Assembly (NCBI GenBank): GCA_020060775.1
Contig: JAGUZN010000220.1
Location: 984 to 64,983 of the forward strand
DNA length: 64,000 bases
Direction of reading: 5' to 3'
From: Armatimonadota bacterium
GTDB taxonomy: Bacteria; Armatimonadota; Hebobacteria; CAIYQO01
The notes under the pieces were generated by a model. The model was given only the letters and a program-made list of their open reading frames with translations, had not been told where the DNA came from and did not search any database. Below are positions 33,336-38,300 of this stretch, piece by piece; position 1 is the stretch's first letter, and every line of letters begins with the position of its first letter. The position numbers were made by a program, and so were the translations under genes.

Positions 33336-33659
33336 CTCGGTTTGGTAAGGTTGGACCCTGTTACGTTATTGAGCTCGAATGCTTACCTGTAGACCAAGGG
33401 CACGTCCTTGCTCAACAGGCTGCTAGGCACCAGCACGGTCTGTTCAATATGCGCACGGGTAATCGTCCCCTTGGAGAAGTGACGGTATACCCATGCGCGC
33501 TTTTCATTCCCGCTCGGTCAGGTGAGTCACGGCGTCCAGCCGGCCCGGCACTATATGGGGGAGCCGAGCCTTATGGCTTATAATCGGTTGTGGACGTGGC
33601 AATGAGAATACGATCAGTACCGATACCACTATTTTGGGGGAAGGAAGGAATCCGCTGCT

Positions 33660-35342
33660 TTGCACCAAATACACTATTTGTGTGCCATCATGCCGATTAG
33701 GACTGATAATATGAGTTTGTCAACAAAAACTCCTCAAAATCCAGATCTGGCAAATCCTAGCAGTTGCCATTCCAGTTTAGGACCCCTTAGGCTGCCGCAG
33801 TCATTTTATGGCGATGCGTTCACGACGTTTCTATATGGAGCGGCGATATGCTGTATCGTTACGAAGGTCGATGCTGGTTATTCATGGTCTAATTTCGGTC
33901 TGTTGGCAATCATCTATATATTTTTTGATTGGGTTAGCAGAATTCTTTTACCATCATGTTTGCCCAATGACGACTTAGCTGTGAGAAATCGCATATACTT
34001 GAATGTGCTAAAAGCACTACTGGAAGCTGCAGGTTTATACTTGCTTACCGCTTTCCTTCTATCTGTTTTCACAACACCATTATACGGGTTATTTGCAGGA
34101 TTTTTGATCGTCAATTTATTGTGGAATTTGTTGTTGTTGTATATTATGGGTGGCCTTGGATGGAGGGACTTACAAGATGTTTGTTTTAAAGGTAATGGAA
34201 TGGATAACGAAGCTATAGCATTACATTCGTCGACCATTACGGAAATCGAAGCTCTAATAGAGAAGGCTGATATCTCTACTGACAATGCAAACACTAGTAG
34301 TCAAGTCATAAAAACGTATAATAATCACATAAAGCTTCGTAGTAGTATCAATTCAATAGGCGCAATCTACCGGATGCTCATACAATTGTTCGCATTTCAT
34401 GTTCGATATGGATATGTAGTTATTGTAATATTTGTTGCCAAGATGCTATTGGAGAGTACAACGAATACTTGGGGAAGTTTTCTGTTGAAAAAAACATATT
34501 TTTCTGTAGTGCTTGATTTCGCACAAGTCACAACAATGCACATAAGCATTTTTTGTGATAATGGCTATTTGGATGAGATATTTCTTACTGTATTAATATT
34601 AATACTTTGTGGTTTTGTTTTACGCTCTGTTAATATCAGTAATGTTTTTCAGAGTGATTGGTGGAAAAGTTACATTGCTAGTATTAAAGATAAAAACTAT
34701 GAAATGCTTGTCCCGTGGATGAAGATAATATGCAGTGTACCACTTTTCTTTGCTTGTTTGTACATATTATATATAATATGTTTTGTTGTATACACTTATT
34801 ACCCGCAGTTGTTCGCAGGTATTGATAGTGAAGGTGTAGGCATTGGCTTCCCAATCTTACTTTTTATTTATATTTTGTTGTTTTTCATACCTTTCTTATT
34901 TTTTAAATACGCACAACTTAATAAAATTATGAAAAAATCAATTGCTTCAAATGGAGATAACCATAAGAATCACGCCTCTATTTCTTGCTCATGCCCTCCT
35001 TCCAAAATCCAAGGAGAGGAGGAGAATAAAGCGATTGTCATTGAGAATTTACGATTTCAACAGGCTTGTAGAAATGGGTCATTATCACTTTATATCATTC
35101 TATTACTACTTTACTTCGCGTTGCCGATAAAAGACTTTGCAATATTTATTGCATTCCAGCAGGCCTGTGTTACGCTATTCCTATGTATCGCCGTATCTTG
35201 TCCACTTGAACAGAGAGATGAACCTATTGGCAACTTATGTCGAATGAACTCCCCGAGACCGACTTCGTGCCCTCCAAATATTAACGACGGGCTTGATGAT
35301 ACAACATCAGTGACGCCGAAAGAACAGGTAACAAGTTCATAG
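33660..35342 (+). CDS. Polytopic integral membrane protein (function unknown) in an AT-rich island.
   Basis: 560 aa with many hydrophobic segments. Codon usage is very AT-rich relative to the rest of the window. Confidence 0.5.
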   Translation: MHQIHYLCAIMPIRTDNMSLSTKTPQNPDLANPSSCHSSLGPLRLPQSFYGDAFTTFLYGAAICCIVTKVDAGYSWSNFGLLAIIYIFFDWVSRILLPSCLPNDDLAVRNRIYLNVLKALLEAAGLYLLTAFLLSVFTTPLYGLFAGFLIVNLLWNLLLLYIMGGLGWRDLQDVCFKGNGMDNEAIALHSSTITEIEALIEKADISTDNANTSSQVIKTYNNHIKLRSSINSIGAIYRMLIQLFAFHVRYGYVVIVIFVAKMLLESTTNTWGSFLLKKTYFSVVLDFAQVTTMHISIFCDNGYLDEIFLTVLILILCGFVLRSVNISNVFQSDWWKSYIASIKDKNYEMLVPWMKIICSVPLFFACLYILYIICFVVYTYYPQLFAGIDSEGVGIGFPILLFIYILLFFIPFLFFKYAQLNKIMKKSIASNGDNHKNHASISCSCPPSKIQGEEENKAIVIENLRFQQACRNGSLSLYIILLLLYFALPIKDFAIFIAFQQACVTLFLCIAVSCPLEQRDEPIGNLCRMNSPRPTSCPPNINDGLDDTTSVTPKEQVTSS

Positions 35343-35384
35343 TTAATGGTATATAAGTGATCATCAGATTGGAGTGACCAAGCG

Positions 35385-36842: not shown

Positions 36843-37932
36843 TACTGTGGAGCAAGTAAGCGATAAGCTGATGGCTGCTACCGATTCTGCGAATTGTTCT
36901 GCGATGTCAGCCTTACTCCACCAGGTGTGCCAATCGCTTCAAGAGTCTGACGCATCATTCTTGCGTCATTGGTATAATAGTCGGCTTACACGCGCCTGCG
37001 AAAACCCTATGCTTGGCGAAAAAGCCGTTACCATCTTCGCAGATTTGCTAGGAATTACCGTCGAGACGGCACAATGCGTTGAGAAGCCATGGATGCTTCT
37101 ATACATCCATGCACTCTTATTAGATGACATGATTGATTATATCCCTAGAGAAGAATCAAAAAAAGTTCAATCATTATGCAGCGCTTTCGATAGGGAACAC
37201 AATAAAGTATGTGAGCTGCTATTGAATGAAAATTTTGTGGTGTATTCACATCACCATCAGCGCTTCAATGCTGAAGCATGGGCAGCTATAACTTACGAGA
37301 TTGAATGGTCAAAAGGAACTAGATTCACATCACATAATGAAGCGCCACGTCAGCAAGGCCTCAAAGCCGCTCTCGCAAAGTCGTGTGCTACCATGCTTAT
37401 GCTTGCTGAACGTGGTATACCTCTTTCATCAGAACAGGAAGAGGGCATTATTACATTATGCGAAGGTATTCAACTTCTAGACGATTTTGCTGATATGACA
37501 GAAGATTATATGCAAGGACGTATGAATAGGTTGTTGAATACAACATATCGATGGATAAGGAGAAATCTGCCATGCATAGATATAGCTTATCTGGGCAAAT
37601 ACCAGCTACTCGTCTCTGCGATTCTTTCTTCTGCGATTACCTGCACATGGATTGATGCGGCAAATCGATATGAGCAGACATTGCAGATATTTAAACCCTC
37701 TAGTGAGTGCTGGACTGCTCAATATTTTTTGCAACAATCAGTGGAATGTCGACTATGCAGCACTGCATTAACTGATTTACTCACGCAAAATCGTTGCCTG
37801 TTGGATCAACTCATCACAGCTCTGAGTGTGAACGAAGAAGAATTAGCGTGTAAGTTAACAACCGGATGCCTAGCCGGTTTATGGCAAGATATTCGCTATA
37901 TTATTGGGACAGGACCAAAAGCAAGTAATTGA
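36829..37932 (+). CDS. Isoprenoid-synthase-fold protein (terpene cyclase or polyprenyl synthase-like) with two DDxxD motifs.
   Basis: 'ALLLDDMIDY' and 'IQLLDDFADMTED' lie about 130 aa apart. Start at the ATG preceded by AAGGAG. Confidence 0.42.
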   Translation: MTYVNTVEQVSDKLMAATDSANCSAMSALLHQVCQSLQESDASFLRHWYNSRLTRACENPMLGEKAVTIFADLLGITVETAQCVEKPWMLLYIHALLLDDMIDYIPREESKKVQSLCSAFDREHNKVCELLLNENFVVYSHHHQRFNAEAWAAITYEIEWSKGTRFTSHNEAPRQQGLKAALAKSCATMLMLAERGIPLSSEQEEGIITLCEGIQLLDDFADMTEDYMQGRMNRLLNTTYRWIRRNLPCIDIAYLGKYQLLVSAILSSAITCTWIDAANRYEQTLQIFKPSSECWTAQYFLQQSVECRLCSTALTDLLTQNRCLLDQLITALSVNEEELACKLTTGCLAGLWQDIRYIIGTGPKASN

Positions 37933-38300
37933 CCGTGGGCAATTCCATCATCGCCTGGGCAATATAGACACTTTTTTCTGAATTAGGTGACAGTATGGGC
38001 AAACTGAAGTGTTCTCAGGAGGCGCGTTTTTTCTTCCGGCATTTTGCCCGGCGTCGTCGCATCTCCTCATAATCGGGTAACGCGTATGCCGGTTCTTCCC
38101 CCTGTGCCCTGGCAGCTTTAGCGACTTGGCACCTGAGTACCCCACGTGCGAAGATATCGACGAGTTCCGCCAGGCGGGCCTCGGGGGTCATCTTGGTCGG
38201 GTCGATGGTGGTATTGAACATGGGACACACCCCTTTCATGAACGTATGACGGACAATACCTCAACATCGGCTGACATGGGAAGGGGATGGCGGAAGATTG

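Follow-up and report, generated by a model that had tools for sequence, protein, structure and literature searches.

An apparently mobile three-gene cassette joining a new family of prenyl-synthase-fold proteins to a sodium:solute symporter and a polytopic membrane protein

The window analysed here, a stretch of 64,000 nucleotides from an Armatimonadota bacterium (assembly GCA_020060775.1, contig JAGUZN010000220.1, positions 984 to 64,983), holds a strongly AT-rich island of 4.3 kb with three closely packed genes. They encode, in this order, a polytopic membrane protein matching no described family (gene A), a transporter of the sodium:solute symporter family (SSF; gene B) and a protein that, judged by its modelled fold, is the representative of a new family in the isoprenoid-synthase superfamily, derived from or sister to the trans-prenyl diphosphate synthases and lying outside PF00348 as this is defined (gene C). 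The isoprenoid-synthase superfamily and the SSF family themselves are already known, and the novelty lies in the unnamed family of C together with its gene partnership with an SSF transporter and a new polytopic membrane protein, for which there is no described counterpart. Gene order, spacing and divergence in related loci indicate that A, SSF and C form an intact operon which appears to have moved as one unit among distant phyla. We tentatively read the trio as a mobile, membrane-associated prenyl-transfer module, where C would transfer a prenyl chain, the SSF protein would supply a solute and A would anchor the enzyme or handle the lipid.

The AT-rich island and its conserved gene order

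The window is chromosomal, as illustrated by its LeuRS and SMC genes. A composition scan at 1-kb steps gave guanine-plus-cytosine (GC) values mostly around 0.58-0.66, the level of the host, with two low-GC islands at 1-7 kb and 33.6-38 kb. The second one is our subject: its segment 33,630-37,940 has a GC content of 0.423 against a background of 0.600 +/- 0.018 (z = -10.1), taken from equal-sized windows outside both low-GC islands, and is the lowest-GC 4.3-kb window of the whole 64 kb. When its edges were refined at 200-nt resolution, the onset fell at 33,600-33,700 and the end at 37,900-38,000, with abrupt steps from 0.59 to 0.445 at about 33,600 and from 0.435 to 0.59 at about 38,000, and a minimum of 0.29 inside gene A, which is the most AT-rich of the three (GC 0.37). 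At third codon positions the GC content (GC3) amounts to 0.35 in A, 0.48 in the SSF gene and 0.375 in C, against 0.67-0.82 in the flanking genes. The low-GC segment is thus almost exactly coextensive with three intact plus-strand open reading frames (ORFs). A first-pass annotation, made from the letters alone, had noticed the abrupt change of composition and taken it as a sign of foreign origin, and both points stand: the composition, the GC3 values and the insertion sequence (IS) elements found on both sides support a horizontal acquisition of the island.

Genomic context was obtained for about a dozen members of the C family, and the order A-SSF-C occurs in all related loci with enough DNA, that is, in 10 loci from distant bacterial phyla (9 of 9 loci holding all three genes, plus L016). 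The complete arrangement is present in L001 (a metagenome-assembled genome, MAG, of Desulfobulbaceae), L003, L004, L008 (a Bacteroidales MAG chromosome), L009, L010, L012-14, L015 and L016. At the contig ends of other loci the arrangement is seen in part: A and SSF directly upstream of a match to C whose full-length ORF is not listed, in L007 (a Candidatus Sumerlaeota MAG), adjacent SSF and C genes in L006 and L011, and, on the short contig L005, a 136-aa partial ORF upstream of C that aligns to the C-terminal part of the cassette SSFs. The spacing between neighbouring genes ranges from -38 to +63 nt across cassettes, and in the window the first 14 nt of C lie within the end of the SSF gene. 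Mean pairwise identities between cassettes are 0.26 for A, 0.62 for SSF and 0.33 for C, and the values for any one protein correlate with those for the others (r 0.77-0.85). This conserved order, together with the tight spacing and the correlated divergence, indicates that A, SSF and C have been inherited and transferred together, and in this regard the initial suggestion of a horizontally acquired cassette held up; its second half, a role in terpenoid biosynthesis or uptake, is still conjectural, and no substrate, product or partner pathway could be identified. A S-adenosylmethionine (SAM)-dependent methyltransferase was considered as a fourth component and rejected, since the methyltransferases of L008 and L015 are not homologous and none lies beside the other cassettes. 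A composite transposon was likewise discarded for the island, which is not flanked by matching terminal repeats, and promoters and terminators scanned for were no more numerous than in shuffled sequence.

The three proteins and their proposed cooperation

The start of C at 36829 is that of the database entry and of all homologues, and a longer ORF of 388 aa opening at 36766 has no homologue support. The protein has no match in Pfam (even at E<=1), NCBIfam, PADLOC or PHROGs, and no sequence relative in the PDB. A word-index search retrieved only five relatives, all unnamed (22-41% identity, 367-379 aa), and when 1.84 billion cluster representatives were searched exhaustively with a HMMER profile, the number rose to 591 at E<=1e-3, of which 236 also passed E<=1e-10 and 91 passed E<=1e-30; almost all these proteins measure 330-380 aa. 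Where the source could be traced, these were all metagenomes or MAGs, and no relative was found among IMG/VR viral contigs, INPHARED phages or PLSDB plasmids. Conservation was assessed with 133 full-length representatives, 16-36% identical to the window protein. Five aspartates (D99, D103, D218, D222 and D226) are invariant in this set, and R52, G63, E64, W88, Y92, D100, E157, K179, Q215 and D219 are conserved in at least 90% of it. The two Asp-rich motifs that the first-pass annotation had pointed out in this gene are therefore no product of chance and follow the pattern of an active enzyme, given that their aspartates are invariant or nearly so at such low identities; they lie 119 residues apart, somewhat closer than the 130 or so first estimated.

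An AlphaFold2 model of C built from a six-sequence alignment is all-helical, with a predicted local distance difference test (pLDDT) of 80.4 and a predicted template modelling score (pTM) of 0.81. The top 50 Foldseek matches of this model in the PDB are all trans-prenyl diphosphate synthases or prenyltransferase domains of bifunctional terpene synthases (e.g., 5jfq, 3oyr, 4jyx and 5ze6), with TM-scores on the target of 0.55-0.69, probability 1.0, E values around 3e-3 and 10-18% identity, and the best BFVD match is a trans-prenyltransferase of a giant virus. The isoprenoid-synthase fold, on which the initial interpretation had been made to depend, was thus recovered. At the level of sequence the kinship is much fainter. 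C passes neither of the two hidden Markov models (HMMs) proposed at the outset as a check, polyprenyl_synt and Terpene_synth_C. When the 133 relatives were scanned singly, 25 matched polyprenyl_synt (PF00348), with a best E value of 1.7e-6 and all below the gathering threshold of 27 bits, and five SQS_PSY matches and three terpene-synthase matches (the latter at E 0.006-0.016), to families of the same superfamily, did not reach threshold either. Since the family profile found only coiled-coil noise among PDB sequences, the link to prenyl synthases shows up in nothing but the fold, the weak Pfam matches and hhalign, which aligned a 39-member C profile with E. coli IspA at a probability of 79% (E 1.7e-5; 67% for the 133-sequence profile).

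The register of this alignment is informative. The LLLDDxxD of C stands opposite IspA LIHDDLPAMDDDD, the first Asp-rich motif (FARM, DDLPAMDDDD), QGRKAAL opposite RHKTGAL, so that K179 corresponds to the lysine of the KT motif, and GIQLLDDxxDxxxD opposite AFQVQDDILDVVGD, the second Asp-rich motif (SARM, FQVQDDILD). The SARM residues and K179 are 98-100% conserved among the 133 sequences. Judged by these equivalences, C keeps the whole acidic machinery of the synthases, comprising the DDxxD of the FARM, the QxxDDxxDxxxD of the SARM and the KT lysine, and its site for an allylic diphosphate and Mg2+ would be intact. The signatures of the isopentenyl diphosphate (IPP) site, in contrast to these, are not found at the aligned positions: IspA GGKRLRP faces G-x-P-M-L-G-E in C, no RRG follows the FARM, and GQxxD falls in a gap. 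Because the GGKRxR, RRG and GQxxD signatures are absent, an acceptor other than IPP is more likely for C. R52 (99% conserved) and R55 (74%) lie 8-11 residues upstream of the position aligned with GGKRxR and could substitute for it, and this conserved R52-x-x-R55 pair may provide a second diphosphate site. The extreme C terminus is also conserved, as GPKASN in the close subfamily and VAQSS in others. Of the likeness to both trans-prenyl and class I terpene synthases proposed in the beginning, the prenyl-chain side is retained and the cyclase side falls away: a cyclase of the Terpene_synth_C type was rejected for C, which shows no NSE/DTE motif and no HMM match.

Gene B encodes, as first annotated, an SSF symporter. 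Its residues 44-419 match positions 13-406 of the 406 of the PF00474 profile (88.7 bits against a cut-off of 22.8, E 4.9e-25). No substrate can be assigned to it, because the protein stays below every NCBIfam equivalog cut-off (PanF, 90 bits against 328; PutP, 58 against 515), as it does for TIGR00813, the sss superfamily model (110 against 184). Its nearest PDB sequences are the choline transporter CHT1 (E 6.5e-9) and the urea transporter DUR3, among curated families it comes closest to the pantothenate and proline symporters, and a weak match to the VC_2705 large-subunit family was also recorded. The window SSF is 56-69% identical to the SSFs of other cassettes and shares no more than 30% identity with any plasmid-borne SSF of PLSDB (72,556 plasmids), and the cassette SSFs thus seem to be a tight subfamily of their own, seen here only in the cassettes examined. 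With a mean identity of 62% where its partners have drifted to 26-33%, the protein would be a working and strongly constrained secondary transporter.

Gene A was initially described as an uncharacterised polytopic membrane protein, which agrees with the 8-11 transmembrane (TM) helices predicted from hydropathy and with the lack of any match in Pfam, NCBIfam, PADLOC and PHROGs. Homologues of 329-459 aa hold the same position in 9 other loci. Throughout the analysis, word-index searches with profiles yielded next to nothing, profile A6 retrieving itself alone and profile A4 seven proteins. An alignment of ten homologues (329-560 aa) contains 20 invariant columns, including D90, W91, R94, K118, E122, Q242, H247, Y485 and Q500. 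The protein starts with a membrane block of four helices, which bears the invariant Y59, D90-W91-x-x-R94, P98, P102, K118-x-x-x-E122 and W155, and continues with a charged helical linker of 60-75 residues, a fifth helix with Q242-x-x-x-x-H247, a variable count of helices and two last helices bearing Y485 and Q500. Counts of Lys and Arg residues would presumably place the loop after TM2 and the linker in the cytoplasm and the TM3-TM4 loop outside; this latter loop is hypervariable, with 6 to 71 residues across homologues. The window protein is the longest of the ten, with additional helices and a low-complexity insert. Enzymes of the UbiA, PAP2 or CAAX-protease type were considered for A and rejected, as their signature motifs were not seen by eye in the alignment and Pfam gave no match.

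How could the three proteins work together? In the module that we propose, C would bind an allylic prenyl diphosphate, e.g., the farnesyl (FPP) or geranylgeranyl diphosphate (GGPP) of the host, through three Mg2+ ions, ionise it and transfer the prenyl chain, more likely to an acceptor other than IPP. The SSF protein would probably import a small solute serving as acceptor, co-substrate or cue, and A, with its invariant polar residues in TM helices and its presumably cytoplasmic K/R-rich loops, would probably dock C at the membrane and receive, modify or move the lipid product. The outcome would be a compound that is prenylated, associated with the membrane and derived from isoprenoid precursors of the host, which would represent an accessory trait borne in variable or defence islands.

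Genomic surroundings

Coordinates of the cassette and of other features are collected in Table 1. The first-pass annotation had remarked that the island does not sit with isoprenoid-pathway genes, and in fact its flanks consist of an AbiEi/AbiEii pair, IS66 remnants and an IS256-family transposase. The inverted fragment of a second AbiEii gene, situated between the cassette and what is left of IS66, suggests an earlier rearrangement or an incoming element once bearing its own AbiE.

Table 1. Positions of the cassette genes, of motifs in C and of other features in the window and in related loci
Feature	Sequence	Position	Strand	Remarks
Gene A, novel polytopic membrane protein	window	33660..35342	+	560 aa from TTG; database start Met18 at 33711, 543 aa (P0156)
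Gene B, SSF (SLC5, LeuT-fold) transporter	window	35385..36842	+	485 aa; PF00474
Gene C, protein of predicted trans-prenyl diphosphate synthase fold, new family	window	36829..37932	+	367 aa (P0001)
First Asp-rich motif of C, D99-D-M-I-D103 (FARM equivalent)	window	37123..37137	+	D99, D103 100%, D100 97% conserved
Second Asp-rich motif of C, D218-D-F-A-D222-M-T-E-D226 (SARM equivalent), Q215 before it	window	37480..37506	+	D218, D222, D226 100%, D219 99%, Q215 98% conserved
AbiEi/AbiEii abortive-infection (type IV toxin-antitoxin) pair	window	30302..31917	+	host-like GC, context only; PADLOC AbiEi E 1.8e-74, AbiEii E 6.1e-101
Left border, degraded IS66-family transposase remnants	window	31920..32874	-	PF03050 fragment, E 9.5e-4, broken ORFs
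Left border, inverted, degraded fragment of second AbiEii gene	window	33117..33245	-	tblastn 63% identity over 43 aa to intact AbiEii; inverted repeat I1
Right border, intact IS256/Mutator-family transposase	window	38418..39638	+	PF00872, E 1.2e-114
LeuRS	window	18137-20752
SMC	window	58632-62204
Second low-GC island	window	107-8298		GC 0.47-0.49
969-aa protein of second island	window			C-terminal ADP-ribosylglycohydrolase domain
357-aa protein of second island	window			without family
Piwi-only short prokaryotic Argonaute (pAgo) of second island	window	4391-5605
430-aa protein of second island	window	5551-6843		C-terminal DpnII/MboI restriction-endonuclease domain
Tyrosine integrase of second island	window	7291-8298	-
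Two-gene module, small protein and HerA/TrwB-like, mad8-like ATPase	L003	66-3475		homologous to that of L010
Two-gene module, small protein and HerA/TrwB-like, mad8-like ATPase	L010	9176-12716		homologous to that of L003
Group II intron D1-D4 fragment	L008	10301-10463	-	RF02001, 34.5 bits; 1.3 kb downstream of cassette

Similar surroundings were found in other loci. Eight loci have at least 3 kb of flank, and in 5-6 of them (six when L001 is counted) strong matches to defence genes lie within about 5 kb of the cassette. In this small sample, taken with no genome-wide background, most loci with usable flanks thus offer a suggestive picture of defence-island-like surroundings. L001 has a GmrSD_C/HNH protein, an SRAP protein, a resolvase and a Toprim protein, L011 an IS66 element and Ppl (E 7e-53) 1 kb downstream, and L012-14 a TIR-domain protein directly upstream. 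L010 carries a WYL-WCX regulator, DUF2779, RuvC and a B12-radical SAM protein, and shares with L003 a module of two genes, encoding a 166-183-aa protein (40% identity) and a 952-1008-aa ATPase (42% identity; mad8-like, E ~1e-22), which adjoins the cassette in both cases, upstream in one and downstream in the other. The C-terminal region of this ATPase looks nuclease-like by eye and is a candidate nuclease, and the module may be either an unrelated defence system co-travelling with the cassette or a facultative partner. Non-defence neighbours are a glycoside hydrolase in L007 and, in L008, a type IX secretion system (T9SS) cargo protein, a methyltransferase, an HTH-M78 protein and the group II intron fragment.

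Some other observations concern the rest of the window. The second low-GC island resembles a short-Argonaute defence island, and its effector arrangement, with a C-terminal restriction-endonuclease domain encoded after the pAgo, may be unusual. Directly upstream of AbiE, a SAM-dependent methyltransferase (29175-30008) gives a partial match to MADS mad2 (E 1.7e-13, methyltransferase domain only). Past the IS256 element, a 255-aa ORF (40243-41010; GC 0.50, GC3 0.48) without Pfam, PADLOC or PHROGs match may be another foreign gene. Further on, four close direct copies of a 21-nt unit (CGTAATACGGTGACAGGTTAT) and one inverted copy (41679-41797) are flanked by a recombinase-like ORF (40932-41459, minus strand; phrog_14161, E 1.5e-20) and a SAM-methyltransferase gene (41908-42699), and resemble operator or iteron sites. 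No tRNA gene was found in the 64 kb. The host proteins that were looked up (SMC, a MinD-like ATPase, a deacetylase and others) are singletons, or nearly so, in clusters at 90% identity built from about 15 billion sequences, which indicates that the host lineage is very poorly sampled.

Rival readings and relation to known systems

Several points weigh against the prenyl-transfer module, which we consider a plausible reading that could easily turn out to be wrong. No candidate has been identified for the substrate, product or acceptor of the predicted enzyme, no isoprenoid-pathway gene was found near the island, and neither a riboswitch nor any other Rfam element occurs in or before the cassette in the window and 11 related loci. 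The role of A is a guess, because its single-sequence model (pLDDT 46.8) was not usable for a fold search, and the whole evidence for a physical complex of A, SSF and C lies in the coupling of their genes and the co-divergence of the proteins. That the IPP site has been lost was read from a single hhalign alignment, with an IspA sequence entered by hand, and the conserved RxxR at 52-55 may replace region I. Moreover, C of the window deviates from the consensus of its family at four positions that are conserved but not catalytic (R27S, P38Q, P67V and L119A), and may be under relaxed constraint as a result. These departures, the large insertions in A and the IS remnants and pseudogene fragment at the borders would also fit a decaying piece of foreign DNA without current function, which is nevertheless very improbable: none of the three ORFs is truncated and each aligns over its whole length with its homologues, down to the C-terminal GPKASN of C, and all catalytic residues are intact. 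The same invariance of the catalytic Asp, Lys and Gln over 133 divergent sequences points to an active enzyme, and argues against a nutrient-uptake module where the SSF protein would import a vitamin- or osmolyte-like solute with A as accessory subunit and C as a regulatory or pseudo-enzyme partner. This idea, to which we give little credence, draws on the SSF protein being by far the most conserved component, on its pantothenate, proline, choline and urea transporter relatives, and on the small accessory membrane subunits that some SSF transporters require, in line with the weak VC_2705 match; A is however far larger than such subunits, and the transporter falls under every equivalog cut-off. 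An ordinary IPP-condensing polyprenyl diphosphate synthase making a carrier lipid or a quinone side chain, with A modifying the envelope as a membrane transferase and an SSF transporter that is unrelated and was simply transferred along with the others, seems equally improbable to us. The closest structures of C are indeed GGPP, octaprenyl and other polyprenyl diphosphate synthases, the FARM, SARM and KT lysine are kept, and the RxxR pair and the conserved C-terminal tail could make an IPP site. The canonical IPP signatures are nevertheless missing at the aligned positions, no family member reaches the PF00348 threshold, and no locus has glycosyltransferase, flippase or quinone genes alongside the cassette. 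Moreover, the SSF gene does not behave as a passenger, since it is present in every case, shows translational coupling and diverges in step with C.

The main rival takes the trio as a new anti-phage or mobile-element conflict system, a credible though unproven candidate that we regard as less likely than not. Upon infection, the enzyme and its membrane partners would alter or deplete an essential isoprenoid or membrane component, or block phage entry, and so protect the population. This would be compatible with the prenyl-transfer chemistry proposed above and differs from it in biological role alone; in its more specific form, an unrecognised immune system acting at the membrane through prenyl-lipid chemistry or the depletion of isoprenoid precursors, we find it slightly less likely still. 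The recognised defence genes beside the cassette in most loci with usable flanks are accompanied by hallmarks of mobile elements (IS66, IS256, resolvase, Toprim and group II intron), the cassette is spread patchily across phyla with a GC content often below that of its flanks, and A and C evolve fast, with the hypervariable loop of A probably external. Such a recurrent neighbourhood, missed by the first-pass annotation, suggests a role in conflict at least as strongly as one in secondary metabolism. On the other hand, none of the three proteins matches any of 5027 PADLOC models (PADLOC-DB v2.0.0, E<=1) or carries a nucleic-acid-sensing, nuclease, NTPase or known effector domain, a transporter at 62% identity looks rather metabolic, the neighbours in L007 and L008 are of non-defence type, and islands of this kind also gather unrelated cargo. 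The argument for defence is one of gene context, drawn from few neighbourhoods. Nothing corresponding to the trio was found in PADLOC, PHROGs or the full-text literature searched, and no defence system with an isoprenoid-synthase-fold enzyme or an SSF transporter came up in that literature.

If C does prenylate an imported solute or make a new membrane lipid, the cassette would bring a new type of reaction and a new class of product to bacterial isoprenoid chemistry. If, instead, its association with defence islands reflects its function, it would be the first immune system based on prenyl-diphosphate chemistry and a LeuT-fold transporter, and prenyl-lipid immunity would represent a biochemistry so far not known in prokaryotic defence. 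The operon is self-contained and spans 4.3 kb, and is thus amenable to a direct test by heterologous expression.

The closest known systems share one or another of these features. To our knowledge, no catalogued defence system comprises an isoprenoid-synthase-fold enzyme or an SSF transporter, and what the cassette has in common with those of PADLOC is the genomic habitat, populated by AbiE, Ppl, TIR, HerA-like and WYL proteins and IS elements. With SSF transporters such as PanF, PutP, CHT1 (SLC5A7) and DUR3, the second protein shares the PF00474 domain and differs in its distance from every equivalog and from plasmid SSFs. Class I terpene synthases (PF03936, PF19086) have in common with C the superfamily fold and a first DDxxD motif, and a few C relatives match them very weakly (E 0.006-0.025), whereas the second motif of C is a DDxxD of the SARM type (DDxxDxxxD) without the Asn/Ser/Thr triad of NSE/DTE, and its best structural matches are prenyltransferases instead of cyclases. 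A nearer analogue could be ComQ, from the ComQXPA quorum-sensing system of Bacillus, a fast-diverging enzyme derived from polyprenyl synthases that transfers a prenyl group to a non-IPP acceptor and whose gene forms a small cassette together with that of a polytopic membrane protein. The likeness would be one of function, and no gene for a ComX-like precursor peptide, a histidine kinase or a response regulator occurs at any cassette locus, where an SSF transporter is found instead. It is with the trans-isoprenyl diphosphate synthases (IspA/FPPS, GGPPS and IspB/OPPS; PF00348) that C has most of its architecture in common, comprising an all-helical class I fold, a DDxxD on the equivalent helix, a KT-equivalent lysine and an (I/F)QxxDDxxDxxxD second motif. 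Apart from the low identity and the missing IPP signatures, the family differs from them in its own invariant residues (R52, G63-E64 within PxLGEY, W88, Y92 and E157), in being about 60 residues longer than IspA, with a conserved C-terminal tail, and in being always encoded behind an SSF transporter and a novel membrane protein.

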